Origin: a virus
Reading direction: 5' to 3' (one strand)
DNA: 64,000 bases
IMG/VR virus record: IMGVR_UViG_3300028654_000009
Each line of letters starts with the position of its first letter. Within the stretch, counting starts at the first letter, position 1. Below, piece after piece: positions 12,006-59,918 of this stretch. Both the position numbers and the translations under genes were made by a program. The notes beneath the pieces were generated by a model. It was not told the origin of the DNA, did not search any database, and saw only the letters and a program-made list of their open reading frames with translations.

Positions 12006-14057
12006 TTAGGGCTTGAATGATGGTTTGGGAGCGGAACCTGGAAGAGCGGTAGAGGGCACGCCGGCCTTCACACCTGGAAGCTTGGGGGTCTTGGGGGCTG
12101 CCGGAGGGGCAGCAGCAGGAGCGGCCACAGCGGCAGCGCCAGGGGCCTTGGGCATCGCAGGCTTTGAGGCTGGTAGACCGGCCTTATCGAGGCCAGGCAT
12201 CGACATCGCATCGTTGCCGGTGCCTCCGCCCATGCCCATTTCGTCCTTCTGGGTGCGCTGCCATGGACGCCTGAGAGCCTGCCCCTGCACGCGCTTGGTC
12301 TCGGCGGCATATACGTCACGCCGGCCCTGTACGGCCTTCTTGGCAGGCTTAGGGTCGACGACCTCTTTAGAGGGTTCCTTCTCTGCAGGCTTGGGATCGA
12401 CGACCTCTTTAGAGGGCTCCTTCTCTGCCAAAGCCATACGGGTGCCCATTGCGCGGGTGGCACCAGCGAGAGATGAATGCTCGCTAGGAGCCGACCATCC
12501 CTTGTTGCCGATGCCCTTGAACTTAGCAATCAGCCCCGAGAGGAAGCCTACACCAGCAGCGTGCTTGTCGGCCTTGAGCTGTGCAGCCTCGTCCACCTTG
12601 GGCTTCATTGTGCCCTGGTCGGGATGAGAGGGCTTGCGGAGGAAGCCGCCGGTCGGGATAGGCGCCGAGGTAGGCATGGCCGGGCTTGGCGGAGCACTGC
12701 GCTTAGGCGGAGCGGTGATGCCCGGAAGGCGTGGGCCAGGGGACTGGGTGTGGTCCACGCTCATCTGGGCATAGTCGGCCTTGATAATGCGCTTGCCGTT
12801 ACAAACAGCATCCGACTCGGGCTTATCGTGGGTCACAAGCTCACCGTCCTGGCGAACCTTCGCGTGTGCTCCACAGAGAGAACACTTCTTGGTCTTTGGG
12901 CCGGTATCTTTCTTCTCTGCCTTCTTTGTCACCTTGCCGCCCGAACCCTCTGCTTCAATTACCTTCTCTTTCTTGTCGTCGGGAAGTACGGCGCCCTTGG
13001 TGGGCTTCTCGGTAGCAGACTCAACCTCGGCGATCTCCTTCGAGGCAGGTTTTTCTTCCTTGCGGACGCTGTTGTCAACCGACTGCTTGTTTTCCTCAAC
13101 AGGGGTACTAGCCATGATGCCGCAAGTATGACAAGCGAAGTGATCTCGATTGCCGAGAGAGCCGATGTGGGCATATCTTTCGGACTCGCCACATCCCGGG
13201 CACTGGCGACCCAAAGCCTGGCTGTCAGTCTCGGTTTCGGGATTGCCAAACTCGTCCTTCTTAAACTTGTCCTTAATCATGCCAGCCACATGCTGAATAG
13301 CCGGCTTGGCAGTAGCCAAAGCCACACCCACGCCGTGAGCAACGGCGGACATGTCGGCTTTCTTGAGAGCGACAGCCGCTTCCTTGGCCAGGACAAACTT
13401 TACCTCTTGCTCATGCTTATCCAGAGCTGCACCCAGCGCCTTAGCGAGGCCTTGAGTGATATCTTTGCGAGTGGGTGAATTGTCCATTTTTTGTCTTTCA
13501 ATAGATTGGGTTTGGAGTTGTGGATACAAATTGTGTTTCTTGATCCCCACAGGCAAGGGAGTAGCGCTGTTCAAAGGCGCTTTGTAAAGCTTGTTCTCAT
13601 CGAAATGCAGCCGCACATAGTCAGGGCGCTCTTGGTTGCCAATACTGGTGTAGTAATCCTCTGGCGGCTGGGTCGGATGGTACCCATAGACAGGCAGGCT
13701 AGGATGAAAACTCCCGTCCTTGTCTCCATTAGAGTAAAGCATCTCTGCGTGCTTGTGGCCGCGTCCGAAAACTACTGACTCTTGCCCATAAGCCTTCGCC
13801 AGCCCATACATCTGCTCGCGAGTAGGATTCCGCACCGTAAAGCCAGATTCGGGCGCTCCATAATGGCCCTGGTGTTTTTGGTACTGCAAACCTAACTGCT
13901 GCAGATTCCGCTCTAAAGACGGATTACCTCCCTGAGCCTGCACGGGAAACCTGGGGTTCTCGGCAGTGATCAGCCCGAACGTGCCCGAAGGGTCGAAAAT
14001 GGGATGACTCCGAAGCTCGGGTAGAGGCTCGGAGTAAGTGGGCATGTCCTGTGGCAT
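12006..14057 (-). CDS. multidomain probable inner-head protein: SAM-lyase/DUF3293-like domain, Zn ribbons, low-complexity tail
   Basis: GLITAENP...GHYGAPESGF...AKAYGQESVVF; CPGC..CHTC; many LKKAD/FKKDE/VRKEE/IIKAD/LDKAG motifs. Confidence 0.6.
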   Translation of the reverse strand: MPQDMPTYSEPLPELRSHPIFDPSGTFGLITAENPRFPVQAQGGNPSLERNLQQLGLQYQKHQGHYGAPESGFTVRNPTREQMYGLAKAYGQESVVFGRGHKHAEMLYSNGDKDGSFHPSLPVYGYHPTQPPEDYYTSIGNQERPDYVRLHFDENKLYKAPLNSATPLPVGIKKHNLYPQLQTQSIERQKMDNSPTRKDITQGLAKALGAALDKHEQEVKFVLAKEAAVALKKADMSAVAHGVGVALATAKPAIQHVAGMIKDKFKKDEFGNPETETDSQALGRQCPGCGESERYAHIGSLGNRDHFACHTCGIMASTPVEENKQSVDNSVRKEEKPASKEIAEVESATEKPTKGAVLPDDKKEKVIEAEGSGGKVTKKAEKKDTGPKTKKCSLCGAHAKVRQDGELVTHDKPESDAVCNGKRIIKADYAQMSVDHTQSPGPRLPGITAPPKRSAPPSPAMPTSAPIPTGGFLRKPSHPDQGTMKPKVDEAAQLKADKHAAGVGFLSGLIAKFKGIGNKGWSAPSEHSSLAGATRAMGTRMALAEKEPSKEVVDPKPAEKEPSKEVVDPKPAKKAVQGRRDVYAAETKRVQGQALRRPWQRTQKDEMGMGGGTGNDAMSMPGLDKAGLPASKPAMPKAPGAAAVAAPAAAPPAAPKTPKLPGVKAGVPSTALPGSAPKPSFKP
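12343..12428 (-). repeat. 42-bp tandem duplication (AEKEPSKEVVDPKP x2)
   Basis: Direct repeat visible in DNA and protein. Confidence 0.85.
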
Positions 14058-14069
14058 GTGGTACCAAGA

Positions 14070-14429: not shown

Positions 14430-14457
14430 TGACCTCCTTTAAGTGGTGAACGAACGA

Positions 14458-17400
14458 TTAAAAAAGGCTCCAAGTGCTTCCGTCATAAACTAGCATATAA
14501 GGGCTACCCAACACTGGCACAACTGGCGAGCCAGTCTTAGTCTTGATGCCTCCCGCCGACGCCGAGTGACCCAACGTGATAGAAGCAGAGTTGGGAATCA
14601 ACACGATAATCGAGCCCGATTGCCAGCCCGTAGTGGTGATAGCCGTAACGGGTGTCGTGCCGCTTAGAACAAAAACATTCCCGTCGTTGCCGAGGGTGAT
14701 GGTCGCGGCGCTGGCGACGGTCGCGCCCTTGCCCTGCTGGTGGCGCGTGTTGTGCTGAAGCCCGTTGGCGTTGACGTGGAATTGCTGAGTGGTCGCCGAC
14801 GCGAAGCCGATGTCACCAGCGCCGATGCGCCACATTCCCGTGCCGGTGTCAGCGTTGAACGAATAGGACGGGGTGGTGTTGCCGCCGCCGGCGTTTGCCA
14901 GGATCGAGGCGTTAAAGACCAACGTGGTCCCCGACACCTGCATCAGTACGGTGCCGCCGGTCTGGAGTCCGACAGCGGTCGTGGTCGCCTTGCCCATCCA
15001 GACCGAGACGTTGTTGACCGATAGGACCTGCCAGTTTCCGCCGCCGAGAGAGATGATCTCGGCCGAGTCTCCGATGTCCAGGAGGATGCCCTGGGCGCCG
15101 CCTGGACAGAGAAGGGACGTGGAATTGTGAGTGAAACCGACGGATGACGCGGTGGTGTTCCGAAGTGTCACCCGCCGCCCGTTGGTGACCGTTCCGAAAG
15201 AGGTGATGTTGACGGCACCGGCACCGGTGAGCAGGACGTATCCGCCCGAGACGGTCGAGAGGTCGGTGGTGGTGGCCGCCGCGATGGATGCGGACGAACT
15301 GCCGAGTGCATCGAACGCAGCGCCTGCCGAGGTCTGCCCCGTGCCTCCTTGGCTAAATCCGAGAGTTCCTGAGATGTTGCCGAACGTAGGCTGAGCAGAG
15401 TTGAACGTTCCGAAGGTTCCATCAAACGCAGTCAGGAATTGATTAGCAGGCGAGACGTATTGGAAAGCCATTGTGCACAAATTCGCTGAGCTGCGCCCGC
15501 GCAATGCGTGCGTTGTGCTGTCCGCCCAAACGCGCAGCGAACCGGCGCTAGGCGCGGCAGGCGCCGCAATTTCAGTGAACTGAATGTCCCCGGCCGCCGG
15601 TACGTCGTTCGGGATGTTGGCGAGGGTCTGCACCGTCGATCCGAGTGGCTTCGTGACATCTCCCGTGAAGGCCGGGAGTTGGCCCGCCGTGATGACGCCT
15701 GAGATGCCCGAGAACGATGGCTGAGCCGCCGAGACCACACCGTTGTCGGAGATGGCGAAAATAAAGTTGTTTGCCGGTGGGGTAATGCTGCGGACCCCGT
15801 GGTTAACGTTCCCAGCGTCGTCCTTTGAACAGAAGTTTTTAGAGGTGCTGTCTCCATAGATAAACAGCTTGCCAGCCGCCGGAGAAGACGGAGCCACCAC
15901 GGAAGTCACAAGGATATCACCGGTCATGGTAACGCCGTTTGATATATTCAACAGAGTCGTTACACCAGAGCCTGCGGAAGTTGTTACATCACCTCCCGTA
16001 AAAGCGGGCAAGCGCCCTACTGGCAACGTTCCAGAGGTTAGGTCTGTGGCGGAGCCCGAGGTTGCAACGGTAGCAAGGCCCGACACGGCTCCGGCAGCAA
16101 TTGCAATAGCCGTAGAACCGGCAGCCGTTATCAAACCCTTCCCGTTGACGGTGAAGGTTCCTACACTAGCTGCTCCACCGAAACTGCCTACGTTGGAGTT
16201 GACCGTAGCAAGGGTAGAGGCATAGCTTGAAGTCGTTATGTCTCCGGTCAGAGGACCAAACTGGGTGCCAGCAAGAGTGCCAGAAATGTCAGAAAATCCA
16301 GGCTGAGCCAACACAGAAGAACCGTCGTCCGCAACCGAAGTCAAGAACTGGTGGCTTACGGCGGCTTTGGTCTGGATTCCATGGTTGACGACGCCTGCAT
16401 CGCTTTTAACAGCGAAGTTCTTGGAAGTGGAATCCACATAAAGGCGGGCCTTGCCGGCACTTGGGGTAACCGGCGCAACTATGGTGGTGGCCAGGAGATC
16501 GCCAGCCATGGGCACATCATTGGGGATGTTGTTGAGGGTGGTGGCGTACGAAAACCCTCCACCGTTTCCTATGTCCCCAGTAAGAGTGCCGAATCGTGCT
16601 GCGGGCAAAATCCCTGTCGTTAGGTCAGCGGCGGACCCCGAGGTGGCGATAGCGGCGAGGCCCGACACGGCTCCGGCAGCAATAGAAATCGGGGCGGACG
16701 AAGCAGCTGTCACCAGACCCTTCCCATTAAGGGTGAAGCTTACTGCGTGTGAGGCATCGCCAAACGAGCCTACGTTGGAGTTGACCGTGGCCAGGGTAGA
16801 GACATAGCTCGAAGTGGTTACGTCTCCGGTCAGAGGCCCAAACTGGGTTCCCGCCAAAGTGCCTGAGATGTCCGCGAATGCCGGCCTGCTGGCGGTGAAC
16901 TGCCCGGTAGAACTATCGAACGAACGAAGCCAGTTCGAGGCCACGGGCGCGATAGTAAAGGCTGTACTGGCTACTGCCCCTGAAGAGTTTTTTGAAGCAA
17001 GCGCCAAACTGGTGGAGTCGATGTAGCAACGAGCAGACCCTACAGAAGGGGTGGCAGGAGAAGCTTGAAGACCCCAAGATGTAAGACCCGTAAAAAACGT
17101 CAACTCTTGGGTAGAGCCACTGATCGTCATGGCGAAAGCACCATTTGCGATCAGGTTCATATTGTTAGAGCCTGAGGTACCGACATTGAAGGCACCATTG
17201 GCCTTCAGAATGGTCTGTGTCGCCGCCTTATCTAGGCCTACGGCTACGTTTGTGAAGCCGCCGAGATTGCCTGCGCTAGATACCGTAACAGGAGGTCCTG
17301 CGGCAGGAGTATAGGCCCCTCCGATCCCTACAAGGAGGCGCTTATTCAGGTTGTCCCAAAATAAATTGGTATCATCGGCGTCCACCAGGTGGCCGGTAGC

Positions 17401-18192
17401 ATCGATGAACGCAACCGCTCCAGGAGTCTTCGTCCATAGACTCCCAGAGATGTCCGCAAAGGTCGGCTGTGCCAGAACAGAAGAACCGTCGTCGGCAATC
17501 GAGGTTAGAAACTGGTGAGCTACTGCTGTCTTTGTCTGGATTCCGTGGTTGACGATGCCCGCATCGTTTTTAGCTGCGAAGTTCTTGGAGGTCGAGTCAG
17601 TGTAGACCACTACCTTGCCGGCCGCAGGCGTTGATGGAGCCGCGATATTAGTGTGGAGAATGGTTCCCGCTGCCGTCACCCCGGTCGGTATATTCACAAG
17701 GGTGGTAGCGAGGGCACCCGCCGAAGTGGTCAGGTCACCTGTCAGGGCGGGGAACCGGCCGGCCGGGAGGGTGCCTGATATCAAAGCCGAAGCGTCGATG
17801 GCGATCGAAATATTAGAAACGCCAGTTACTAGCCCCTTAGCGTTGACCACAAGCTGGGGAGTATGGGATGCGTCACTCCAGGTGCCTACGTTGGAATTTA
17901 CCGTGGCAAGTGTGGCAACAACCGAACCGGTACCGGAAAAGGCCACATCTCCAGTAGCGGCCGTAACCCCGTTTGATAGAGCTACGCTCCAAAAGGAACT
18001 GTTAGAGGGGGCATTGCCGGTAGACTGCTGGAGGCAGACGTAAGTCGCGGCATTGTAAACCACCGCATCGTACGGCAGATAGGTTACATTGCTGGCGTAG
18101 GCGCCCTTCCAGGTAAAGCCGCGACCATCCTTACCATAAATTACGGTAGGTATGGAATACTGCCGGGGCCTATTTTCATCATTCGCTGCCAC
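14458..18192 (-). CDS. long fibre protein with internal repeats
   Basis: 1244 aa rich in A/G/S/T; repeated GDVT..LATVNSNVGSFG..NGKGL and AP..P.AGK..Y.DSTSKNF modules; N-terminal W.G.Y...Y...D.V.Y module. Confidence 0.8.
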   Translation of the reverse strand: MAANDENRPRQYSIPTVIYGKDGRGFTWKGAYASNVTYLPYDAVVYNAATYVCLQQSTGNAPSNSSFWSVALSNGVTAATGDVAFSGTGSVVATLATVNSNVGTWSDASHTPQLVVNAKGLVTGVSNISIAIDASALISGTLPAGRFPALTGDLTTSAGALATTLVNIPTGVTAAGTILHTNIAAPSTPAAGKVVVYTDSTSKNFAAKNDAGIVNHGIQTKTAVAHQFLTSIADDGSSVLAQPTFADISGSLWTKTPGAVAFIDATGHLVDADDTNLFWDNLNKRLLVGIGGAYTPAAGPPVTVSSAGNLGGFTNVAVGLDKAATQTILKANGAFNVGTSGSNNMNLIANGAFAMTISGSTQELTFFTGLTSWGLQASPATPSVGSARCYIDSTSLALASKNSSGAVASTAFTIAPVASNWLRSFDSSTGQFTASRPAFADISGTLAGTQFGPLTGDVTTSSYVSTLATVNSNVGSFGDASHAVSFTLNGKGLVTAASSAPISIAAGAVSGLAAIATSGSAADLTTGILPAARFGTLTGDIGNGGGFSYATTLNNIPNDVPMAGDLLATTIVAPVTPSAGKARLYVDSTSKNFAVKSDAGVVNHGIQTKAAVSHQFLTSVADDGSSVLAQPGFSDISGTLAGTQFGPLTGDITTSSYASTLATVNSNVGSFGGAASVGTFTVNGKGLITAAGSTAIAIAAGAVSGLATVATSGSATDLTSGTLPVGRLPAFTGGDVTTSAGSGVTTLLNISNGVTMTGDILVTSVVAPSSPAAGKLFIYGDSTSKNFCSKDDAGNVNHGVRSITPPANNFIFAISDNGVVSAAQPSFSGISGVITAGQLPAFTGDVTKPLGSTVQTLANIPNDVPAAGDIQFTEIAAPAAPSAGSLRVWADSTTHALRGRSSANLCTMAFQYVSPANQFLTAFDGTFGTFNSAQPTFGNISGTLGFSQGGTGQTSAGAAFDALGSSSASIAAATTTDLSTVSGGYVLLTGAGAVNITSFGTVTNGRRVTLRNTTASSVGFTHNSTSLLCPGGAQGILLDIGDSAEIISLGGGNWQVLSVNNVSVWMGKATTTAVGLQTGGTVLMQVSGTTLVFNASILANAGGGNTTPSYSFNADTGTGMWRIGAGDIGFASATTQQFHVNANGLQHNTRHQQGKGATVASAATITLGNDGNVFVLSGTTPVTAITTTGWQSGSIIVLIPNSASITLGHSASAGGIKTKTGSPVVPVLGSPYMLVYDGSTWSLF

Positions 18193-20168: not shown

Positions 20169-20981
20169 TTAAATCTTCGAGGCTATTCGCTCGATGAGAT
20201 CCGGCGTGATGTGTGACTCGACCTCCTCTAATGCCCAAGCGTATACCGAATCGAAGATGTGAACGGGCTGAAGACCCGGATGGAAGAACCCGTCTGGGTT
20301 CTTGGATGTGGCCACACGAAAGGTTAATACACTTTTTTTAGTGCCCCCAGAAGGTGTAGCCGACTGATACACAGAAACGCCCCTAAGGAACGGTATGCCT
20401 GTCTTGCCCTGCTTAACACCTCCCACTGGTCCGTGACCCTGCCCTGGACCTTCTCCGCTCTTGAGAGGTTTGTCCTCGATGTTGAACGAGTGAATCTTGC
20501 CCATCTTGGGACGGCCTTGTGCGTCCCGCTCGATTTTGGCTAGCGGAATCTTCCGCTTCTTCAGCTCGGCCCGAACGGTATCCACGGTCTCTTTGGAGGA
20601 CTCTGGAGTGTTCGTAGGGCCCTTCCCGGGGCCCACGTGCTGGAATGGTACCACCAGGTACTTATGCCCGTCCTTCGAGGTCTTGGCCGAAGGGCTGTTC
20701 AGCAATGCGTCCAGCATAGAATGCGGCTCCATGCCGTCGTCGATCCATACCGAACCTTGTGCAAGGGATAGGTAGTGCTCCCCGTTGCCTTCGTGGGTAA
20801 GACTCAGGGCTTCCACAAACATTTGCCTACGAGAATGCAGACGTTCGTTTGCTAGTTCTAAAGCTTTGGCGTGTACCTGTATGCTGAGGTCATTGGCGGC
20901 TTGCTCGGCTTCTTGCTTGATGATGTCTGCTAAGTCCTTGAAGCCAGCCAGGCAGCTGAGGTCGATATTGATGTTATACAT
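20169..20981 (-). CDS. neck/tail completion protein
   Basis: In the virion operon; KYLVVPF.H and TFRVATSK....F.HPG motifs typical of myovirus neck proteins. Confidence 0.55.
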   Translation of the reverse strand: MYNINIDLSCLAGFKDLADIIKQEAEQAANDLSIQVHAKALELANERLHSRRQMFVEALSLTHEGNGEHYLSLAQGSVWIDDGMEPHSMLDALLNSPSAKTSKDGHKYLVVPFQHVGPGKGPTNTPESSKETVDTVRAELKKRKIPLAKIERDAQGRPKMGKIHSFNIEDKPLKSGEGPGQGHGPVGGVKQGKTGIPFLRGVSVYQSATPSGGTKKSVLTFRVATSKNPDGFFHPGLQPVHIFDSVYAWALEEVESHITPDLIERIASKI

Positions 20982-23900
20982 TACGGGCTATTCGGCTCCC
21001 TACTTGAGACAGCGTGACTGTTGGCCCCTCCGCCACCCGCGCCTCCGGGCTCAAGTCCCTGAATGAGGCCGGCTGTAACACCTTTCCACCCCACCGTGCC
21101 GTCCGCATGTTGCACCTTCAAGTGTCCATTGTGTAGCGAGCCCACAGGCAGCTCCAGGTCCTTGTGGGTCGGAGGCATGGACTCCTTGTTTAGCTCCTTC
21201 TCGGGCGGGAATTTCTCGTTGGGTTCGATTTCTTCTTTGGCTACATGGTGGGAGCAGTCTGGGCCACAAATCAAAAGGTCGTCCTCCTTCTCGGCCGGGA
21301 ATTCGCCCTTGAGGGTGTATTGGTAGGGCCCATGCCATTTAACGCCCCGGTTATCAACATAGTCGTCTGGCTCTGGGTTGTAACTCATCCCGTGCTTCTC
21401 GGCCAAGGACTGATGAACCCTGTGAGCCATTTCAGAATGGCTGCCTCCTTGAACGTCTTTGATCCCAAGCTTGTTCTTGGCGTGCGAGTAAAGAGCCTCG
21501 TACATGGCCTTCCCCAGACCTCGCCCCCGGAGACTGCTGCTCAGAAAAGAATGGGGGGTCAGCATCCCTTCCCATTTCTCTTTTTCCGCACCTGTGCCTA
21601 GGCTACGGTTGCGATAGTGAACGTCCGAATGGACATCTCCGTCTGTCATATGTTGAGCATCGTTGTGCAGCTCGGCAACGATATGATGGACATTGTACTT
21701 CCCTCCGACTCCATGCCGGCGCTCCTGCACAACCAGGCTGTGGGTCTTGCGCATCTCCTCGGGCAGCAGGTGTGAGTAGTTGTAGTTTCTGGCTACCACC
21801 GTCCCATGGAGGGTCCTGTCCACGTTTTGATACTTACCCACAGGAATGTCCTTGATGGCCTTCTCGACCTTTTGGTCATGACAGCCCTTCGGGCAAAGCA
21901 GAAGCTTTTCTTCGTCAACGTTCGGAGCCAGCTCGGCCTTGAGGGCATACTTATAAGGCATGTGTGAGATGTTCGAGCCATGGATTCCGGAACCGTCGGG
22001 ATTGATAGGATCGACTTTGTAGTCCAGGCCGTGTGTTGCCGCCAAGCTTCGATGTACAGCACTCGCCTGCGCAGAATGCATCCCTCCGGCAACCCCCTCG
22101 ACCCCCAGCTTGTTCTTTGCGTGGGAATACGTGGCTAGATACATCGCCTTCCCGAAGCCTTTCCCGTGGTGGGCCAGATCGAGGTCAGCATGGGGCTCGA
22201 TGTGCTTATTTTTGATATACCCCTGCACATTCCCGACCAACGGATTGTTGGACGATTCGTCGTTGATGTACGTGCTGAGGTAGTTTTTCGAAGGGTTGTG
22301 GCGGACGAACATCTTGAAGTTCGAAGGCGTACCTTGTGGGAGCAAATGGGAGTAGTCGTGTAGGTGGACGTCGTTGCCATTGGCGTCTTGGTAGGTGCTC
22401 ATATGTTTGCCGGTAGGAACGTCGGCGATGGCTTTCTCGATCTTCTGGTCGTGACAACCAGGAGGGCAAAGCAACAAAGTTTCCTCATCATGATCTGGGG
22501 CTAGCTCGCCTTTGAGTTGGTACTGGTAGCCGGCGTAAGGGTAACGTGTGGCCGAGATTTCAGGATCGTCAGAACCGTCCTCGGGACGAAGGACGTAGGG
22601 AACGTGTTCCAGGCCGTGTTTCTTCGACAGAGCGATATGGACCGCTTCTGCTTGTGGAGAATGAGGTCCGCCCTGTACGTGATCGATCCCCGCCACATGT
22701 TTTGCATGGGCGTAAAGAGCCTCATACATAGCTTTACCTAAACCCTGTCCGCGAAATTGCTCGTCTAGATCGGAGTGTGGTTCAAGCCTCGTAAATTTGG
22801 CGAAAGGATCGTACCCCTTAAAGGTTCTGACACTGTTGGGCGGCCGCACGTATCCAGTAACGGCTCCCACATATCTGGGGCGGTCTCGTCCTGGTCTCGT
22901 CAATCTCGCCACTATCCGCTCTTTGCCGTTTTCATTGTTTTGGAAAGAATGATGAACGTGGAGCGACAGGCCCTGCTCTTTTTGTTCTGGCGTCAAAAGA
23001 TGGCCGTAATCAAACTTCTTCTGAGTTACCGGGTCACCTGAATCATCGTCACCGTTAGGAAATGTGGTTTCCCCTTGAAACTTGCCCGGCTTCAGGTCAG
23101 AGATCGCTTTCTCGATCTTCTGGTCGTGACAGCCGGGCGGACAGAGCAACAGAGCCTCTTCATCATGATCGGGGGCCAGTTCATCTTTGAGTTGGTAATG
23201 GTAGCTATCATACGGGTACTGCTCCAAAGGCAGACCGAATCCGCTCTTGGGGTTTCTTTTCTTTGAAACGTAGTTTAGCCCCATTTCACCGGCTAGCGAT
23301 CGATGAACCCTGTCCGCCGCCGCTGAGTGTTCCCCTCCTACGACATGGTTCACCCCCAAAGTATGATGGACATGAGCATAGAGGGCCTTGTAAGCCGCCT
23401 TGCCCAGCCCCTTGCCACGATATTCCTTCTCTAACTGGGAGTGGGGCTCTAGGTATGGCTCCCCTTGGAGTTGATCTTGGAATTCGTACTCGGCATTTGT
23501 GGACGGATTAATGTGCCCATGGGCTCCACCGAGATTCTGCTGCACCCCGTAGTTGGATTTGCTCAGCCTTGCCTCGACCATAGATGGGAATTGTTTGTGC
23601 CCCTCCTTTCTCTGATGCACCTTCAGCGTAAGCCCCATCGAGCGCTGGGACGGGGTCAAAAGGTGGTTGTAGTCATAGACTTGGTTTACGATGTTTGTTT
23701 CAGGGATCGGTCGGTCTTCTTCATGGGGACCCGGAGAGATATCAGAGATAGCCTTCTCGATCTTCTGGTCATGGCAGCCAGGAGGACAAAGCAGCAGGGC
23801 TTCCTCATCATGATCTGGCGCTAACTCGCCTTTGATCTGGTAGTCGTAGTCCATATATGGATAACGCTGTACATGTTCGTCGTCCGGGTCTTCACCGTAT

Positions 23901-40289: not shown

Positions 40290-40489
40290 TACTCGACCTC
40301 GACCGCCAGGTCCTGTGCGGTATGGATGCGTCGCAGCACGTCTTGGATGGAGGTGGGGTTGTGGCCGGCATTGCGCGGGTGTGTCATCGCCCAAGGAAAC
40401 TCCAAAAGAAGCTGGGCGACGATCTGCTCGGGCTCCCCCCGGAAGGTTTCGACTTCCTGAGACCAAATATTTGTAATCTTGACCGTCAT
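40289..40489 (-). CDS. small protein resembling the N-terminus of the downstream kinase protein
   Basis: TAATG coupling at both ends. Confidence 0.65.
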   Translation of the reverse strand: MTVKITNIWSQEVETFRGEPEQIVAQLLLEFPWAMTHPRNAGHNPTSIQDVLRRIHTAQDLAVEVE

Positions 40490-51398: not shown

Positions 51399-52261
51399 GC
51401 GGCCGGCCTCCAGCGCTCGATCCGAAACATCTGGGCACCGTAATGGAGCTTTACGGCTCCGGGCTGGGAACTACCAAAATTGGAAAGCAACTAGGGGTAA
51501 GCTCCAGGGCGGTTCGCTACTTGATGAAACAGAGCGGCATCCCCCTCAGGAGGGATGATTTCGCCAAACTAGTTATCAATGACGGCTTCTTCGACGAAAT
51601 TGACACGCCAGAGAAGGCATATTGGCTGGGCATATTGATTACCGATGGGAATGTGTCTGGGACCCGAATAACGCTGAACCTGAAAGATCGGGAGCATCTG
51701 GTAAAGTTCGCTGAAGCTCTAGGAGGCGGCCAGACACTATCTATCAAAGCAAAACACAAACAAATGGAAGGTCGGGATGTGGTTTGCTTCAACCTCCAGT
51801 TTAGAAGCAAACACATGGCCGGAGCGCTGTCAAAATACGGGGTCGTCCCTCGCAAAAGTGCAACATCATACCCATGGAACGGTCCGGCTGAATTGATGCC
51901 ACACTTTTGGAGAGGGTGTGTGGACGGCGATGGGTGGATTACTGAGATAAAGCCAGGTAGGTTTGCTATTGGTCTGTGTGGAACAAAAGCGATGACACAA
52001 GCGTTCTCAGACTTTTCTTATTCTGTCACTGGGGTTGCTCACAAAATCAAAGCACAGGGCAACATTTTTGTTTGCAGCGTCGGCAGCATAGAGGTGGTCC
52101 GAAAGTTGGCAATTTGCCTGTATGGAAACCTAGATAAGGCTAGTAGCCTTGACAGAAAGCTGGATAAAGCTATTTTGGCGATGGGGGCTTTGGTCCAGCA
52201 ACCCCCGCCTGGGCGCCCGAAGAAGGCAAAGCCCCAGCTGGTGGGGCCCCAGAATCAATAG
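51395..52261 (+). CDS. LAGLIDADG homing endonuclease with N-terminal HTH
   Basis: AYWLGILITDGN and FWRGCVDGDG motifs. Confidence 0.9.
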   Translation: MSGRPPALDPKHLGTVMELYGSGLGTTKIGKQLGVSSRAVRYLMKQSGIPLRRDDFAKLVINDGFFDEIDTPEKAYWLGILITDGNVSGTRITLNLKDREHLVKFAEALGGGQTLSIKAKHKQMEGRDVVCFNLQFRSKHMAGALSKYGVVPRKSATSYPWNGPAELMPHFWRGCVDGDGWITEIKPGRFAIGLCGTKAMTQAFSDFSYSVTGVAHKIKAQGNIFVCSVGSIEVVRKLAICLYGNLDKASSLDRKLDKAILAMGALVQQPPPGRPKKAKPQLVGPQNQ

Positions 52262-55200
52262 GCATAGGTCCTTCATGTCCTGGTACCAAACTGTGGACAA
52301 AATTCGGAGTTTTTTGAGGCGAGTACATTGCTTTCCGTTTTGTCCCCAAAACCTTGTTGAACAGGCTCGGTGCTGCAAACTTTTGCTCCTTTGCCATACC
52401 CAAAGCTTTGTCTGCTGTTTCGAAGTTGTGGCCGAGACCAAACGACATTGACAGCTTGTGCTGGCCATTGACCGGAGGAAGGGCTTCCAACCCGGCCTTT
52501 GCGTGTCGGATAAATTGCGCTGCGTGCTCGTGCGTAGGTGCCCAGAACGACATTTCGTCTCCTCCGCTGCGCCATGCCTTCCCCGTCCCCACCTTAGCCG
52601 CTGCATCACGAAACGCTCCGCCCATAGCCTTGATAGCACTGTCGCCAGCATCGTGACCGTGGATGTCGTTCACCTGCTTGAAGCTGTTCCCGTCAGCGGA
52701 CACCCAAACACCAGGCCGGTTCTCCTCGCGAAATTCCGACGCAGCCCTCTTGTTACCGATGCCCGGTATCATCGGGTCGCCGTAAAATCCATGAACCAGG
52801 GCTCTGGTAATCGGGTGGTCGTGCCCATGAATCTGACGTGCCTGAGCGATAGCCGTACGGTGATCGGGCACCGTAGGCTCGGGGGGCAGGTGTAGGGTCT
52901 CCTCGTCCTTCCTCATTTCGGAAGACATTTTCTTGTATCGCACAGTACCAATTCCGGTCTTGGCATTGTGTAAGATTAGCTGAAGTTCGCCCTCGGTCAA
53001 GGCGTGGCCGTCCATCGCTGCTCCATGCGGCCCAAACTCAATCGTGTGTGGCTTGACCATGCCCGGTCGGTGGAACTCGAACACCGAATTAGGCTTCGGC
53101 ATCGGCATTTTCATGACCGTCAGCTCTGGAACCGGATTGGGCTTCGCGACCTCGGTGGAGGGGGTCGTTTCGGTGACCGAGAAATTGGGACTCCACTTGA
53201 GGCCATGAAGCCCAGCGATAGCCGAAGCGTCCATCTTGCCCTCGGGAACCATTGCATGCAGAAGGCCGTGGTAGTCTTCCAGGTGGTGGACGACATCACG
53301 ACTGACCGAGAACCGGCCCGCCGGGTGAATTTTGTCGCCATGCTTGATGCCTACCGAATAGATAGTCGGCATATCAATTTTGGGCTCAATGGCGTCCGCA
53401 ATATCTTTCCTCAGGTCGATGAGAGCTGCTTCCATCTCCCTGGCCTTGGCCAAGAACTCCATGTTCTGGCCATTCCTCTCTCGATGCTCGGCAGCTTCGA
53501 GGAGCTTGGGGACCAAGTGGTGATAATACAAGAACTGAGCGGGGATCTCTCCGTACTTTTCCACATAGCTTTGGTGAACCAATGCCGTGCGCAAAGACGT
53601 TCCGGAATCGGGCTCGTCACTCTTCTGGACCGGATCAATCCAAGGCTTGATAGAGTCCCAAAATGGTTCATGGTGGGTCCCCGACTGCTTGCCCTTGTTG
53701 GTCATACCCACAAACTGCTCGTGCGGACGAATCGTAATCCAGTGTCGCCAGAAAGCAGGGAACAAGGCGTCCTTGGGGTCCTCGAACGTTGAACCCCACT
53801 TTGGGTGATTAAGAGTGTATTTTACGGCCGGGTGGTTCTTGGCGTACCAGTCGTTATACGGCCTCATTATGGTATCGATGTTGTTGGGGTTCCACAGCAT
53901 GTTCTTCAGGTAAGTGAGGGTCCGCTTATCTTTCATTACGTGCAGACCGAACATGTTGCGGATAAAGTGAGTATCAGGTACAACCGAGTCGCCACCACCC
54001 AACATCCCATAGGTGTAAAGACCAGTTTTGACCGCAAGACCCGGGACAGCGGTAAACGGAGACTCCCCTGGGTCAGGTTTACCCAGCAGTTTAGCTCGCT
54101 CACGCTTGGCCTCCCACAGTTGACCCTTGTGTTTGTTTCCCATTAGCTCGGAAACGGCGTCGAGGGCGTGATGACGGTGTCGGGATACCAGGTCGACGAG
54201 ACCGTGATGCAAAGAATGATAACGAGATAAGTTTTTGAATGACCCTTCCATCAGGGGAGTCGTGCCGGGCAGCTCGCCAGCATACCGACCAGCGGCCGTT
54301 GGGTCGCCTGGGAACTCTCCCCATTCATCGTGGCGAATACCGATACGGTTGCCCACATAATAGGCCGGGTTTGTAGCGAACGCTTCTTTACCGGTCTCGG
54401 GCAGCGTATTCGGAGAGTCCAATTCTCTGAATTTTGGCTCAATCGCCGAGAAGCCCGGATTTCTCGGATCAAGACCGGTGGCGTGCATGGCGTCCACAAG
54501 TCTAGCGTACTGTAGCTCCTGCACCGGGACCGGCCGATTCGGAGACAGCTGGGCAAACATCACGGCATGCATGATGACCTCTGGCGGTAACTTACCGGCC
54601 TTGATCAACTTATGAACCTTGCTCCAGTTGGTCATAGCAGTGTCCATGGCCTTTTCGACTTCTGGAGACTTCAACAATTTCTCATAATTCGCAGCCGATT
54701 CTGGGCCATCATCAGAGGGGAGATAGGCTTTGAAACTTCCCATGGGGGTCCGCAAAACGCCTTTTTTGGGATCAAAAGAGGGGTGTTTGACAGATGGATT
54801 GGGGCGTATTTTGGTTCCTCGGAAGGTGGCAGCCGTAAATTTTGGGGCCTTAGCTTCTTCCTGTTCACTGTCGTCGAAATCCTCAAGGATCGGCTTGTCG
54901 GGTTTCGGGGCCTCCGGGGGCGTCGCAGGCGCGTCGCCCTCTCGCTTAGCCAGAGACTTCTTTACGGTGTACGCCTCCGCGATGTCGGCAAAGTGATTGA
55001 GAAAATCGTCCGACACTTCCGGGAGCTTCGCCTTGGCAAACCCCATGAACTCGCTCCGCGTAAATTTTCGATTACCGAAATCTCGCAAAACAGCCTTGCA
55101 GGTATTCCTGATTCGGTCGTCTACGTGTTCCTTCTGGAGAGCGGCGCCTCCAGTGAGAGAAGATGGAGCCCCTCCACCCATGCCGGCCTCTATCGCCTTG

Positions 55201-55892
55201 CGCACAGTCGAAAGAACCATCGCAGACCGAAGCAAATTGAGAGAAGCCTCGGCCTTGGAATCAATGATTTCGACCTCGGTCTCGTACCCTGATAGTTGGG
55301 CGTACTCGGGGTCGATTATGGACGTGTTTTCAGACTTCTTGAAGCCTTCGGGGGCGTTGGGGTCGGATAGCAGAATGGTGTCGCAAGCTTTGAGACAGGG
55401 TTTGATAGTAATCGCGACTCTGCGGAAGATGCATTGCTTGATAGTGTTACCCTCTTTCTTGAGGGTAGAGCCTTCGATGCTAAACCGACACAGGATCTTC
55501 TCGTCATTGGCCACAGCGTCTCGAATTTGGGCGGCAACGGCCATGGCCTCGGCGTGTCCCGCTCCGTCATACAGACGGACTACCCCAAAAAGGTAGGGCA
55601 CTCTGACCTGGTCCCAGAATTTCTCTTGCTCTGTGGTCTCGCAATCTCCCTTCTTGAAGATTTTTTTAACATAGATGACACGGCCAATGGTTTCCTTACC
55701 AAAGCCAGTTTCGGCGTCAACGTGTTCCCAGTTAACGGTAGCTGTCCCCTCTTCTGCACTAGAAATATCAATACCGTCTAGCTCGACAGTCTCACCGCTG
55801 CTATCAATAAGTTCAGCACTGAAGATGCCTCCCAGCAACATCCCAGTTTTGGATTCTTTCGGCTGGTCTCTTGGATTGCTCATGATATCCAA
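52170..55892 (-). CDS. prohead protease fused to an HhH-GPD-like domain and a C-terminal GGDEF domain
   Basis: DSSGE, VNWEH, IG, FSIEG, VAIT..P protease motifs; PGLAVKT...VPDTH; D..FKQVNDIHGHDAGD...R.GGDEM; start may be ATG at 55883. Confidence 0.85.
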   Translation of the reverse strand: MDIMSNPRDQPKESKTGMLLGGIFSAELIDSSGETVELDGIDISSAEEGTATVNWEHVDAETGFGKETIGRVIYVKKIFKKGDCETTEQEKFWDQVRVPYLFGVVRLYDGAGHAEAMAVAAQIRDAVANDEKILCRFSIEGSTLKKEGNTIKQCIFRRVAITIKPCLKACDTILLSDPNAPEGFKKSENTSIIDPEYAQLSGYETEVEIIDSKAEASLNLLRSAMVLSTVRKAIEAGMGGGAPSSLTGGAALQKEHVDDRIRNTCKAVLRDFGNRKFTRSEFMGFAKAKLPEVSDDFLNHFADIAEAYTVKKSLAKREGDAPATPPEAPKPDKPILEDFDDSEQEEAKAPKFTAATFRGTKIRPNPSVKHPSFDPKKGVLRTPMGSFKAYLPSDDGPESAANYEKLLKSPEVEKAMDTAMTNWSKVHKLIKAGKLPPEVIMHAVMFAQLSPNRPVPVQELQYARLVDAMHATGLDPRNPGFSAIEPKFRELDSPNTLPETGKEAFATNPAYYVGNRIGIRHDEWGEFPGDPTAAGRYAGELPGTTPLMEGSFKNLSRYHSLHHGLVDLVSRHRHHALDAVSELMGNKHKGQLWEAKRERAKLLGKPDPGESPFTAVPGLAVKTGLYTYGMLGGGDSVVPDTHFIRNMFGLHVMKDKRTLTYLKNMLWNPNNIDTIMRPYNDWYAKNHPAVKYTLNHPKWGSTFEDPKDALFPAFWRHWITIRPHEQFVGMTNKGKQSGTHHEPFWDSIKPWIDPVQKSDEPDSGTSLRTALVHQSYVEKYGEIPAQFLYYHHLVPKLLEAAEHRERNGQNMEFLAKAREMEAALIDLRKDIADAIEPKIDMPTIYSVGIKHGDKIHPAGRFSVSRDVVHHLEDYHGLLHAMVPEGKMDASAIAGLHGLKWSPNFSVTETTPSTEVAKPNPVPELTVMKMPMPKPNSVFEFHRPGMVKPHTIEFGPHGAAMDGHALTEGELQLILHNAKTGIGTVRYKKMSSEMRKDEETLHLPPEPTVPDHRTAIAQARQIHGHDHPITRALVHGFYGDPMIPGIGNKRAASEFREENRPGVWVSADGNSFKQVNDIHGHDAGDSAIKAMGGAFRDAAAKVGTGKAWRSGGDEMSFWAPTHEHAAQFIRHAKAGLEALPPVNGQHKLSMSFGLGHNFETADKALGMAKEQKFAAPSLFNKVLGTKRKAMYSPQKTPNFVHSLVPGHEGPMPIDSGAPPAGALPSSGAQAGVAGPKPPSPK

Positions 55893-55910: not shown

Positions 55911-56114
55911 TTAATTCGTCTCGAAACGGACAGCCGAAACGACGCGCTGGATCTGGACGTCTTCGACATCACAAGGAGCCAGGTCGTTCTTCCCGATGAC
56001 ATCCGCCCATTCGTCAAGCTCTTCTGGAGGCGGCGGTCTGAAGTCGTCGGCCACTTGGATCTCGTAAACGGAAGTGGCCATCTCCTGGACTACTACACGG
56101 TAGGTCTTACTCAA
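55911..56114 (-). CDS. hypothetical protein
   Basis: TTG start after GGGGAGA, overlapping the MuF stop. Confidence 0.5.
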   Translation of the reverse strand: MSKTYRVVVQEMATSVYEIQVADDFRPPPPEELDEWADVIGKNDLAPCDVEDVQIQRVVSAVRFETN

Positions 56115-56886
56115 CGTCTCCCCCTTCTCTTTGTTGTTTGTATTCGTCGTGGTCCTTGGACTTGAAAGTGACGAAACCGTTGCTATTAAAACCAAATCCG
56201 GGCATGAGGATGGTCATGCTGCACCTACAATTTGGGTGCAGGACGGTACAGGGATGATCGTCGCCCCGCTTCCAGTAGCCTGAGCCCACCTCGGACAGTT
56301 TCCACACCCTGGGGGTAGTCTGGTCCGGCAAAAGGAACAAGCTCGTGCAGTCTTCGCACCGAGACTTGTCCCTGACCGTCACCCAAAACACTGTCGGGTC
56401 TTGCTGGCTGGTAGCCGCAGCGATTTTTGAGATTCCGTCAAGAGTGCCCATATTCCGAGCGCGGGTGGACTCTGTATCGACGATTCGGCGCACGTCCGAC
56501 GTGACTTTACCCATGACCTCGCCAAGCTCGTCACCCAGAACCTGGTGAAAATTGGCGCTTTCGCCTTTGGCCTCAGCATCATGAAGGGTGGCCTGGACCG
56601 TGTGTACGATTTTGGCCTTCGCCAGCTCACGGTGAGCGTCGAGGTATTGTTCGGCGACGGATTTCAGGCTGTCCCGAAGCTTCTCCGAGGGAGTAAACCC
56701 TTCGCTCCTGGTGGCGTTGTCAAACAGCCCTGGGAGGCTCAGGGTGTCGTTGTGAAGCTTGACACCCACACGGATAGTCTTGTCCTTGCCTGGACCCAGG
56801 AAACGCTGTTTAGCCCTCTGGAATAGGCCGTCGATCGCCGCGTGAATGGCGTTGATGGCCTTCTTCGTGAGGATGAACCGAGGCAC
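56107..56886 (-). CDS. MuF-like minor head protein
   Basis: RIVDTE..RA, RD...CEDC, HPNCRC. Confidence 0.85.
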   Translation of the reverse strand: MPRFILTKKAINAIHAAIDGLFQRAKQRFLGPGKDKTIRVGVKLHNDTLSLPGLFDNATRSEGFTPSEKLRDSLKSVAEQYLDAHRELAKAKIVHTVQATLHDAEAKGESANFHQVLGDELGEVMGKVTSDVRRIVDTESTRARNMGTLDGISKIAAATSQQDPTVFWVTVRDKSRCEDCTSLFLLPDQTTPRVWKLSEVGSGYWKRGDDHPCTVLHPNCRCSMTILMPGFGFNSNGFVTFKSKDHDEYKQQREGGDVE

Positions 56887-56887
56887 G

Positions 56888-57119: not shown

Positions 57120-57125
57120 TAGGAC

Positions 57126-57407: not shown

Positions 57408-57409
57408 TC

Positions 57410-57792: not shown

Positions 57793-57794
57793 TA

Positions 57795-59918
57795 TTATTT
57801 CTTCTTGAAGTGCGCGGCCACGTCGAGAATCTCTTTTACGGCCGCCTTCGAGTCTTCCTCCCACCCGTCCATAAAGTGCTCGACAGTCTTGTTGTGTTGT
57901 GCTAAGAGCCGCCGCTTGTCCGGCGGGAGCTGCATCTCGTGCTTGCTCAGGGCGTCAAAGGCGATATCGATCGAGCGAGCCAGGTCCGAGGCTCCTGAAC
58001 CAGTCGCCCCTTGCCCCGAGGCGTCTGGGCTGGCCGCCGACTGCTGTTTCTGGGTGGGCTCTGGAGTGTTCTGGCCGCCGGCTGAAGGTCCCTGTGACGG
58101 GTCTCCCCCGCCTCCTGGCTGCCCTCCTGGGGCCCCTCCACCGCCGCCCCCATCCTGTGGGGGCCCGCCACCCTGGGCCTGCTGCTGCTGGGCCATCTGG
58201 GCCTGTTGCTGCGCTTGCTGTTGCTGGACCCACTGGAACCAGAATGGGTCTCTCACGTAGGCCAGATTGGGGTCCTTGCTGGCCCCCTCACGGCCGCAGA
58301 AGTGCTCCAGAATTTGGCCGACGGTGAAATACTGGTCGAGGTAGGTCTTGAACACCGGATTAAGCGGGATTGTGCCGCCCCATGCCTTGCCAACCGGCGG
58401 CTTCTCGACTCGCTCCGAGATGTCGTCATAGTTCATCCAGATCGACATGTCCTGCTGGGTCCGGACGGCTTCTTTCTCGGCGTTGTCGGATTCGAGACCG
58501 ACGAGCCTTACCGAGGCCTTCTTGGACAACTTAGGGTCGATGAGGGGGAACAGGTGCTGGTTGATGAAGTCTTCGAAATTCTTCAGCAGCGGCCGGATAC
58601 CGACATCCCGGGCCGCCGTCATTTTGTACTCGTTGTTGCTCTCCGACAGGGCCTGATTGTTGGTGCCCTTAGACAGATATGACCATCCAGGTAGTTCGTC
58701 TGGAGACATCATGAATGCAGTTAGGATTTCCCGAGCATTCAAATCGCACAGGTACTGAAACTCCATATCCTTCCCCCCGCCCGTATCGATAGGCTTCCAA
58801 TCAATACTTTCATCGACGCCACAACCAAACACTGGCATGCGCCACGAGTTATTGACGCTGTTGATGCTAGCGTTGAACTGTTGCTTGATATTGTGGATGA
58901 CCTGTGGGTTAGCATCCTCGGACGAAATCACCAGCATGCCGCGAGCGGCGCGGCCTGATTGAAAGTAGAGCTTGTTGTGTTGGGTCAGATTAATGTGCGT
59001 GGTCACCGCACTGATGATCGTGTCGATAGGCGTGACGGGATACCCGTCTAGCTCGACGTCTGGAACTGGGTAGCAGTTGTAGACCGACATCTCCTCGGCC
59101 GTGAACGCCTGCTTAGGAGTTCCTTCTACCACCTGTACATAGCAATAGTCGCCGGCCTCGTACTTCTCTTTCTCCAGCTTTTTGCCGGTGATTCTGCAAA
59201 GAAGGTGGTACGCGTCTTGGCGAACGGACTCTAGGCTATCCTGGTTGGAAGGAGCTGCGTCATAAATCGTTCCCGCATCGACGGCGACGAAGTGGTGGAA
59301 CTTTTTCTTGCCCGGAGAGTCCGGGTCATCGATCCAGACTTTTTCACAGGCGATTCGTCCGACGACCAAAGCGTTTCGGGCCTGGAGGGCCAGGAACTCG
59401 GAGAAAGTAGTAACCATATCTAGGCCCGTCGTTTCGCCACACAGGTTGAGTTTCTTGACGGCCCGGTCGATCTGGACATTGAATTCCTTTTTCTCCTCGG
59501 GCGACATCTTGTCCAGCTCGCCTGTATTCGCCTTGATGACGAACCCCGTAGAGAAACGGTCTTCACGGGGGCGCCCGAACGAACTGAGGTGGTTCTGGCG
59601 AGCCCTTACAATGTTTGAAACCAACGAGTCCTGGATTGCAATGCGCTTGAGCATTGCGTCCGGGATGAGTCGCATCTTGGCGCGGTAAACGCCACTGTAA
59701 GTATTATTGAGAGTCGGGTCGGTTTCGAACGATAGCCTTTCTACGCTATCATTACCCTGCCCGTTAAGGACGTTGAGGATCGATTTGGTGAGACTTGGCT
59801 TGTCCTCCCCTGTGCGAACGTACACCATTGACTTGGCCAGGTTCGCAGAAAGTTGCTCCTCGTTGAGCCCCAGTCCGTAAGTCAGGTTGGAGGTGGATTT
59901 TGGGGTTCGCCTTTTCAT
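57795..59918 (-). CDS. portal protein
   Basis: YN.YP.....GYPVTPID, YFQSG...GML, KDMEFQYL, F.M.PDE; Q/G/P-rich tail. Confidence 0.9.
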   Translation of the reverse strand: MKRRTPKSTSNLTYGLGLNEEQLSANLAKSMVYVRTGEDKPSLTKSILNVLNGQGNDSVERLSFETDPTLNNTYSGVYRAKMRLIPDAMLKRIAIQDSLVSNIVRARQNHLSSFGRPREDRFSTGFVIKANTGELDKMSPEEKKEFNVQIDRAVKKLNLCGETTGLDMVTTFSEFLALQARNALVVGRIACEKVWIDDPDSPGKKKFHHFVAVDAGTIYDAAPSNQDSLESVRQDAYHLLCRITGKKLEKEKYEAGDYCYVQVVEGTPKQAFTAEEMSVYNCYPVPDVELDGYPVTPIDTIISAVTTHINLTQHNKLYFQSGRAARGMLVISSEDANPQVIHNIKQQFNASINSVNNSWRMPVFGCGVDESIDWKPIDTGGGKDMEFQYLCDLNAREILTAFMMSPDELPGWSYLSKGTNNQALSESNNEYKMTAARDVGIRPLLKNFEDFINQHLFPLIDPKLSKKASVRLVGLESDNAEKEAVRTQQDMSIWMNYDDISERVEKPPVGKAWGGTIPLNPVFKTYLDQYFTVGQILEHFCGREGASKDPNLAYVRDPFWFQWVQQQQAQQQAQMAQQQQAQGGGPPQDGGGGGGAPGGQPGGGGDPSQGPSAGGQNTPEPTQKQQSAASPDASGQGATGSGASDLARSIDIAFDALSKHEMQLPPDKRRLLAQHNKTVEHFMDGWEEDSKAAVKEILDVAAHFKKK

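Follow-up and report, generated by a model that had tools for sequence, protein, structure and literature searches.

The head-to-sheath block at positions 12006-59918 of IMGVR_UViG_3300028654_000009, an IMG/VR virus record analysed here as a single stretch of 64,000 nucleotides (the window), encodes several very long proteins in which unrelated enzyme domains are strung together, and it raises the question of whether such strings are taken apart by the protease that matures the phage head. Polyvalent proteins of this kind are widespread in phages, and whether and how they are processed has so far been a matter of guesswork. The explanation that we favour, and take to be probably right, is that the enzyme strings are cut inside the head into single enzymes, which are injected together with the DNA. 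The argument begins with a short lysine-directed motif, passes to the protease that would recognise it, and then to the free-standing polyproteins whose linkers carry it.

A lysine-directed motif concentrated in the head block

An earlier note on this DNA, made from its letters alone, had drawn attention to a hydrophobic residue (h), any residue and Lys, followed by Ala, Ser, Asp, Glu or Gly, and every instance that it listed is present. In what follows a slash marks the predicted scissile bond, Lys occupies P1, and P1' and P2' are the two residues after it. When the strict form [LM]-x-K-[SA] is counted against a null model in which local composition is kept and no genes are selected, the open reading frames (ORFs) of 12006-59918 hold 43 copies where 13.2 are expected, and the remainder of the window holds 2 where 4.0 are expected. 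The counts for single proteins, with expectations taken from composition shuffles of each ORF, are as follows.

Scaffold: 9 observed, 0.6 expected
p683: 6 observed, 1.0 expected
mCpol-GNAT protein: 8 observed, 1.7 expected
Nudix-kinase protein: 5 observed, 1.3 expected
Sheath: 0 observed, 0.5 expected
TerL: 0 observed, 0.8 expected

Control motifs with Arg at P1 (LxR[SA]), with reversed order or with shifted spacing (LKx[SA]) show for the most part no excess; three window ORFs have a raised count of [LM]xE[SA], which in the GNAT protein comes from a repeated MYEA. Myxococcus phage Mx1 repeats the pattern: its portal-to-sheath block contains 37 strict motifs against 12.1 expected, this head block holds all five of the most enriched among its 168 ORFs, and none of its large tail, baseplate or replication proteins is motif-enriched. 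The expectation that the motif would be enriched in the head module relative to tail and early proteins is borne out, both in the window and genome-wide in Mx1.

The flanking residues define the motif further. All 12 window copies of the five-residue form h-x-K-[SAT]-[ED] fall in head or candidate-cargo proteins, and Glu at P2', when that position is left unconstrained, is enriched 4-5x alike in scaffolds, polyproteins and the extensions that follow the protease. Asp, Glu or Gly at P1', which the earlier definition had admitted, is not enriched (0.8x), leaving Ser, Ala and Thr. A recognition motif of hydrophobic-x-Lys followed after the cut by Ser, Ala or Thr, with Glu favoured at P2', is strongly supported. 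The chance that the whole pattern is an artefact of chance or composition is, in our estimation, negligible: a four-residue motif is admittedly short, and the proteins were picked after it had been seen, but z reaches 15-16 in two independent sets (113 and 63 proteins), the excess is replicated genome-wide in Mx1, the controls are mostly flat and the sites concentrate in linkers.

There is likewise strong support for the statement that the motif marks the places where proteases of this class are known to act, namely the capsid N-terminus, the scaffold, the portal N-terminus and the C-terminal flank of the protease. The head genes that carry it or accompany it were identified, like the others treated here, by Pfam and PHROG scans, and all the relevant genes lie on the minus strand.

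57795-59918, minus strand: portal protein (Pfam Phage_portal, 44.5 bits, and PHROG portal families)
56107-56886, minus strand: MuF / SPP1 gp7-like minor head protein (PHROG head-morphogenesis and minor-head families)
49486-50442, minus strand: scaffolding protein with nine strict sites
48052-49443, minus strand: major capsid protein, MCP (PHROG 752, major head protein, E 1e-45)

The predicted maturation cut of the MCP follows Lys12 (ELKK/ALEAG); the L-x-K/A at this place is kept in six relatives with G+C contents of 36-65%, and the form L-x-K/ALEAG occurs also in SP-10. The scaffolds of Mx1, SP-10 and the relatives G002, G003 and L024 have 4-8 sites each. Both portal sites that had been proposed, LAK/S after residue 29 and LTK/S after residue 45, are present as candidate cuts; they are both N-terminal, and not, as had been thought, distributed over the two ends of the protein. 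Site 45 aligns with PLTK/S of Mx1, and the N-terminus upstream of it is unalignable yet bears sites in both phages. The MuF-like protein is conserved in Mx1, G004, G002 and G003. The premise that capsid proteins of the Twort/A511 type are matured at such sites stands as well, SP-10 (Herelleviridae) having the same K/[AS] signature in MCP, protease, scaffold and portal; because SP-10 shows the same site pattern, the motif is a signature of the Herelleviridae-type head module.

As a separate observation on the portal, its residues 565-640 form a Gln/Gly/Pro-rich low-complexity insert that BLAST matches (E 1e-5) to scaffold residues 48-227, the central part rich in Pro, Gly and Ala.

An N-terminal prohead protease with fused candidate cargo

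The protease itself stands at the head of a long protein, encoded by ORF 52170-55892, whose parts are delimited by the motif.

55353-55841, minus strand: prohead serine protease domain, residues 18-180, with its fold modelled by AlphaFold (AF2); likely ATG start at 55883
54957-55199, minus strand: capsid-mimic module, 80 residues after Lys232 (VRK/A), up to VKK/S after residue 312
53445-54956, minus strand: cargo domain X, residues 313-816, between VKK/S (312) and LAK/A (816)
52173-53444, minus strand: C-terminal cargo with a GGDEF nucleotide-cyclase domain (52422-52736), identified by Pfam

The structural model strongly supports the assignment of the N-terminal ~180 residues to a prohead serine protease of the gp21/assemblin fold, which upholds at the level of the fold the earlier identification of a protease domain with FSIEG (residue 137). 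The AF2 model, built from 101 sequences, has a mean predicted local distance difference test (pLDDT) of 83.8, exceeding 90 over residues 20-180; its best match is T4 gp21 (5jbl; VIA Z 10.3, root-mean-square deviation 2.9 over 125 residues), after which come only herpesvirus assemblins (eight or more, Z 7-10); the Foldseek probability for the fold is 1.0. His57, Ser138, Glu140 and Lys232 are invariant in the 101 sequences, and His57 and Ser138 are the candidate catalytic residues.

A profile built from four relatives retrieves at least 1,095 representative clusters (50% identity), of which 684 have an E value below 1e-30. A tblastn search of 50,697 GenBank phages with the protease returns Mx1 as the sole match. 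In the best-scoring 150 of the at least 1,095 representatives the protease domain is N-terminal, in proteins of 302-1,953 residues, and is followed by variable cargo. Across 113 such cargo extensions (86,866 residues) [LM]xK[SA] occurs 266 times against 104 expected (2.6-fold, z 15), and within the protease domain itself it is depleted (0.46x). In the extensions, too, Asp, Glu or Gly at P1' shows no excess (0.81x), nor does Arg at P1; the Glu control [LM]xE[SA] reaches 1.77x there.

The stretch that follows Lys232 copies the N-terminal arm of the mature capsid protein. It reads AIEAG..APSSLTGGAALQ and resembles the mature MCP N-terminus ELKK/ALEAGNYDAAPSTLTQGAALQ, with a BLAST match between MCP residues 7-138 and this region at E 8e-5; a pattern of the form h-x-K/[AT]-x-x-A-G-...-APSxLTGGAALQ follows the protease domain in 118 of the 150 best representatives. 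A second peak of sites lies 70-90 residues beyond the first in the family, its equivalent in the window being VKK/S after residue 312, and the variable cargo starts beyond that second site. Here the cargo comprises domain X, for which Pfam and PHROGs give no match and the sole lead from the atlas is DUF7178, and the GGDEF part, which scores 36.4-38.5 bits in Pfam against a cut-off of 23.8 and has the loop RSGGDEMSF (a GGDEM motif). A reading of domain X as an HhH-GPD glycosylase was considered and found to be without support in Pfam or PHROGs.

The Nudix-kinase polyprotein

One of the free-standing polyproteins, P0001, is preceded by a gene that is coupled to it through TAATG.

40489-44523, minus strand: polyvalent protein P0001 (Pfam NUDIX, 62 bits; PI3_PI4_kinase, 57 bits), made up of a Nudix domain (1-140), two unassigned regions (141-331 and 332-570), a helical repeat (571-694) and two PI3/4-kinase-like domains (695-999 and ~1000-1344)
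44523-45368, minus strand: conserved protein of 281 residues (PHROG 772, 'tail fiber'), TAATG-coupled to P0001

Motif sites follow residues 140, 331, 694, 999 and 1032 of P0001. From their positions K140, K331, K694 and K999 are candidate cuts; K1032 is a doubtful one, being poorly conserved and part of a loop that the model folds with confidence. In Foldseek the protein matches PI3K structures. The two ART domains that had been assigned to this protein are at most putative: Pfam and PHROGs recognise none in residues 141-331 and 332-694, and the sole, weak lead is a language-model neighbour cluster that is 20% ART-PolyVal (score 0.89).

Homologues allow the sites to be followed through many rearrangements. 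The 63 that were collected have shuffled architectures, some with PolyVal-specific Pfam families, and contain 217 sites against 82 expected (2.6-fold, z 16), again with no enrichment of Asp, Glu or Gly at P1'. In most of 47 homologues a site of the FDLKK/SE type directly follows the Nudix domain, whichever domain comes next. Among 33 collinear homologues Lys999 is conserved in 97% and Lys694 in 52%, against a background of 1.3 of the 33 sequences per position. Folding was carried out on the collinear block 540-1344, a fragment alignment of 1-1200 being too gappy; in the resulting model (pLDDT 77.7) Lys694 and Lys999 lie in two low-confidence inter-domain linkers, and a degenerate VKK/H after residue 570 stands at the N-terminal edge of the helical domain. 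Out of 138 homologue sites, 48% fall in three predicted linkers that comprise 9% of the residues and 14% of the lysines (P ~1e-21). The claim that the sites lie at domain boundaries holds to this extent, in that they are concentrated there; the hits in GNAT motif A and in DUF3293 described below are internal to domains, and K1032 lies in its folded loop.

The 281-residue protein has its gene directly ahead of the polyprotein gene in the window, in Mx1 and in L025, and one Endonuclease_7 gene intervenes in L024; the protein could serve as a loader or adaptor for P0001.

The mCpol-ParB-GNAT polyprotein and further candidates

20981-26293, minus strand: polyvalent protein P0002 (Pfam mCpol; Acetyltransf_1, 59 bits; PHROG ParB), made up of mCpol (1-158), two unassigned regions (159-365 and 366-505), a ParB-like region (506-637), five GNAT units (638-1686) and a tail (1687-1770)
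38967-40289, minus strand: stand-alone kinase-like protein of 440 residues from the ATG at 40289, with an Mx1 homologue annotated 'kinase'
32605-33831, minus strand: protein of 408 residues with no assigned function
12006-14057, minus strand: p683, with an N-terminal domain resembling DUF3293 and a C-terminal part of low complexity

In P0002 strict sites follow residues 158, 365, 505, 637 and 912, and IEK/A or VEK/A follows 847, 1062, 1287 and 1478. The candidate cuts are K158, K365, K505, K637, K847, K1062, K1287, K1478 and K1686. The mCpol (minimal CRISPR polymerase) domain is matched over positions 1-113 of a 114-position profile at 38-44 bits (gathering score 26.4). The ParB-like assignment is putative: the region matches PHROG 1033 at E 1e-4, reaches only E 0.19 with Pfam ParB_N, and is homologous to residues 1231-1392 of an Mx1 polyprotein. 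A near-identical CPPGCHDQKIEK/AI.D..PG separates the GNAT units, and in homologues such units are flanked by K/SE sites. Three strict hits in P0002 are the acetyl-CoA motif GLGKA (GNAT motif A) inside the fold and are false positives. A homologue search with residues 1-1100 gave no match.

The presence of five GNATs in one phage protein is unusual in itself. The five (21236-24382) are connected in tandem through a Cys/His-rich linker that hardly varies, ELAPDHDEE.LLLCPPGCHDQKIEK, and its CPPGCH element might bind a metal.

Six motif-marked polyproteins had been announced, and three or four are convincing. The kinase-like protein at 38967-40289 (2 strict sites, 0.6 expected) and the protein at 32605-33831 (1 strict site, 0.4 expected) are only weakly marked and not individually significant. 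In p683 at least one of the six strict sites is domain-internal, site 88 lying inside the DUF3293 match; its homology to h559 of Mx1 stops at residue 158, adjoining LYK/A after residue 159. As a further polyprotein we also considered p1244 (14458-18192, 1,244 residues), and rejected it for its look of a fibre-type structural protein (2 sites, 0.5 expected). Upstream of p683, p1244 shows repeated weak similarity (E 0.002-0.2) to a 325-residue protein at 59920-60897 in the gap between TerL and portal, and no homologue of it was found in the first 50 kb of Mx1.

P0001, P0002 and P0003 (protease plus GGDEF) each combine unrelated effector-type domains and are in this sense polyvalent proteins. Their translations read as intact at the Nudix box, at both kinase catalytic loops (DRHxxN, IDHG), at the GGDE loops of mCpol and GGDEF, and at four of the five GNAT motif A copies.

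Processing by some other peptidase, encoded by the host or embedded in the polyproteins, would be a different way to release these domains, and embedded zincin-like peptidases have been proposed to autoprocess many polyvalent proteins (Iyer et al. 2017); we consider it quite improbable here, for no peptidase domain was detected in the window polyproteins, and their sites have the same signature as those of scaffold and MCP.

Fusions that tie the same enzymes to the protease

The distribution of these domains among relatives links the free-standing enzymes to the protease. In G004 the protease is fused directly to the GGDEF part, domain X being absent, and VKK/T and LRK/S stand 15 residues apart where the window has the 504-residue domain X between VKK/S and LAK/A. 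G002 has the protease fused to a homologue of the window's stand-alone kinase, and in G001 the domain of that kinase is fused to a GNAT polyprotein. Mx1 unites GNAT, Nudix and ParB in a single protein, both Mx1 and G002 encode the GGDEF part on its own, and one PHROG portal family includes a Nudix segment. Because the same enzyme domains are split differently among genes in each relative, the comparison indicates a rapid shuffling of cassettes at motif-bearing junctions.

Genomic setting

The window covers the genes from head to sheath of a ~168 kb myophage of the Mx1 kind. Mx1, with 169.6 kb the closest phage in GenBank, has an MCP 58% identical to that of the window and is syntenic with it across the whole block; remoter MCP matches (25-29% identity) are Herelleviridae (SP-10, CP-51), and the head genes for portal, MuF, protease, scaffold and MCP are of Herelleviridae type. 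Metagenomic contigs as long as 168,313 bp also encode the exact Nudix-kinase protein of the window. The block is bordered by two further genes recognised in the Pfam/PHROG scans.

60922-62979, minus strand: TerL
9456-11993, minus strand: tail sheath

The order portal-MuF-protease-scaffold-MCP is common to the window, Mx1, G004, G002 and G003, and polyvalent genes sit between MCP and sheath, with synteny in Mx1, L024 and L025. TAATG coupling of several of these genes, another element of the earlier description, is confirmed at 44523, 20981, 40289 and 33831. The Mx1 block corresponding to this one also contains a thymidylate synthase and a deoxynucleoside monophosphate (dNMP) kinase, and is therefore not purely structural.

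The non-structural genes bear on the view that the polyproteins are cut in the cytoplasm at a late stage of infection, by the prohead protease or by some liberated version of it, and that the products act there, for instance on host defence while heads assemble, and are neither packaged nor injected. T4 gp21 is able to cleave a loop of a cytoplasmic CD-NTase (PMC12991175), no packaging signal was found, and the Mx1 block includes the thymidylate synthase and dNMP kinase just mentioned. On the other hand, prohead proteases are normally active only once co-assembled, the protease-cargo fusions bind such domains to the prohead interior, and gene order together with TAATG coupling puts the genes in head/neck operons. 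We judge cytoplasmic cleavage to be decidedly unlikely.

Two observations on neighbouring sequences may be recorded. The hexamer AATCTT lies 5-8 nucleotides upstream of several start codons of the block (14057, 18192, 19251, 34574, 35747 and 47141, minus strand) and 12 nucleotides before 55883, and it heads p683, p1244 and several small head/neck genes. TerL has ~1,025 residues in G004 (L009:10527-13601) and G003 (L021:11856-14945) as opposed to 685 in the window, an insertion of ~380 residues, intein-like or homing-endonuclease-like in appearance, splitting the alignment at window residue 329.

Weighing packaging, cleavage and ejection

Under the explanation that we favour, the protease would co-assemble into the prohead together with its C-terminal cargo (domain X and the GGDEF cyclase), would cut itself, the scaffold and the N-termini of MCP and portal, and would free the cargo by cuts after Lys232, Lys312 and Lys816. 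The neighbouring polyvalent proteins, with their Nudix, two PI3/4-like kinases, mCpol, ParB-like region and five GNATs, would also be prohead contents, since the same motif is found in what are predicted to be exposed inter-domain linkers. They would be cut at these linkers into single-domain enzymes during head maturation, and the products would leave the capsid with the DNA and act on the host early in infection. Prohead loading would be secure for the protease-fused cargo alone; for the free-standing polyproteins it is probable from the sharing of the motif and the fusion links in relatives, and cleavage and ejection are inferred throughout.

Several results weigh against this explanation. 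An all-against-all comparison of polyprotein termini revealed no shared targeting peptide, in a search that short degenerate signals would escape. The protease has no Pfam (S77/S78/U35) or PHROG hit up to E 1 and no PDB sequence hit up to E 10, and must therefore be placed in a sequence family of its own that shares the fold alone. Whether sites coincide with the junctions of high-scoring segment pairs (HSPs) in the window was tested with a moderate outcome: P is 0.008 when the broad motif is used and 0.09 when the strict one is. The remaining 144 ORFs of Mx1 contain 46 strict motifs against 33.6 expected, a baseline excess of 1.37x that betrays some non-specific bias, and several hits are inside folds (GNAT motif A, DUF3293, and the kinase VKP motif, whose column also yields hits among the P0001 homologues). 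Many homologous GNAT units start with LEK/MAIAD, with Met at P1', so part of the signal may belong to the GNAT module itself. Finally, the helical repeat and kinase of P0001 together resemble one PI3K unit, so a cut at K694 need not separate functional parts.

Some of these results would suit a reading in which the motif is cut only in scaffold, MCP, portal and protease-fused cargo and is, in the free-standing polyproteins, the uncut linker or module-edge signature of shuffled cassettes, packaged or not: the LEKMAIAD that belongs to homologous GNAT units, the baseline excess in the remaining Mx1 genome and the missing targeting peptide all fit it, as does the precedent of polyvalent proteins of the N4 virion RNA polymerase (vRNAP) type, which are packaged uncut (PMC5512222). 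We nevertheless hold it to be unlikely. The P2' Glu preference of the polyproteins equals that of the scaffolds; the sites recur at equivalent boundaries despite differing flanks and neighbouring domains; 48% of them are in disordered linkers; the motif is depleted inside the protease domain; and fusions tie the same domains to the protease.

A wider proposition, which we advance tentatively as somewhat short of probable, is that a large group of tailed phages, nearly all of them uncultured (protein clusters number at least 1,000, and Mx1 is the sole isolate found), may follow a Gag-Pol-like logic: an N-terminal protease would carry variable cargo, separate polyproteins would be loaded into the prohead and cut at h-x-K/[SA]-E linkers, and a cocktail of single-domain enzymes (the nucleotide-signal synthases mCpol and GGDEF, Nudix, PI3K-like kinases and multiple GNATs) would be injected that could pre-empt host immune signalling before phage transcription. 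If the explanation that we favour is true, the prohead protease doubles as loader of the cargo and activator of the enzymes that are injected; the proteins delivered with phage DNA then come to include nucleotide cyclases, kinases and acetyltransferases; and fusion to the protease at the N-terminus would be a natural handle for packaging foreign proteins in capsids. As the present analysis supplies a cleavage rule, site predictions at the level of the residue and a cultivable model, Mx1 on Myxococcus xanthus, the question becomes directly testable. For Mx1 the predicted cuts would make Ala15 the first residue of the MCP and would fall after K39, K196, K235 and K266 of the scaffold, after K242 of the protease protein and after K107, K131, K608, K1063 and K1253 of the NUDIX polyprotein.

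Comparison with known systems

Among the closest systems known is T4, whose gp21 follows an L/I-x-E rule and trims the capsid, the core or scaffold proteins and injected effectors such as the ADP-ribosyltransferase Alt (PMC5512222, PMC12991175). The window phage resembles it in having an assemblin-fold protease that would work inside the prohead and a three-residue rule, here h-x-K. In the T4 system (gp21, Alt, IPI-III, gp67, gp68), however, short N-terminal targeting peptides are removed from single-domain proteins, whereas the sites described here lie between the domains of multi-enzyme proteins of 1,300-1,800 residues, P1 is Lys and not Glu, and the protease carries cargo. Ejected head-internal proteins are protease substrates in giant phages too, phiKZ gp175 and SPN3US gp245 having propeptides cut at several copies of a motif (PMC10052503). 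These are N-terminal propeptides removed at A-x-E-type sites, and the products are mostly of unassigned function, not recognisable enzyme strings. To our knowledge, no protease-cargo fusion has been described in phiKZ or SPN3US.

The polyvalent proteins themselves were defined as late gene products that combine Nudix, kinase, GNAT, ParB and ART domains and for which packaging and injection were predicted (Iyer, Burroughs, Anand, de Souza, Aravind 2017). That study mentions a rare assemblin-like peptidase of limited distribution, 'always C-terminal', which 'likely' processes polyvalent proteins, but it ascribes processing mainly to embedded metallopeptidases and states no cleavage motif; in the family of the window, by contrast, the protease is N-terminal (as seen in 150 of the at least 1,095 clusters), and the module borders are marked by a defined motif.

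In the Herelleviridae (SPO1/SP-10/A511/Twort type) the likeness extends to the sites themselves: the MCP of Bacillus phage SP-10 reads NLNK/ALEAG, its protease has GFSIEG and VSK/TMEAG, its scaffold has seven h-x-K/S sites and its portal two N-terminal sites. It differs in that its protease is a stand-alone protein of 248 residues without cargo. We know of no report of motif-punctuated polyvalent proteins in the Herelleviridae.

In the herpesvirus UL26 protease-scaffold fusion and in retroviral Gag-Pol the protease is the N-terminal part of a longer precursor, enters the procapsid with it, and releases both itself and its partners at defined linker sites. The architecture found here, with an N-terminal protease in a longer precursor that would be cut at linker sites, is alike in this respect, with the difference that UL26 and Gag-Pol deliver scaffold or the virus's own replication enzymes and not a variable set of host-directed ones. 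The general theme is already known from T4 Alt, from the ejection proteins of phiKZ and SPN3US and from polyvalent proteins; what is new is the Lys-specific rule between domains, the protease-carrier architecture, with the protease at the N-terminus, in a very large group of uncultured phages, and the site-level predictions in a cultivable relative.

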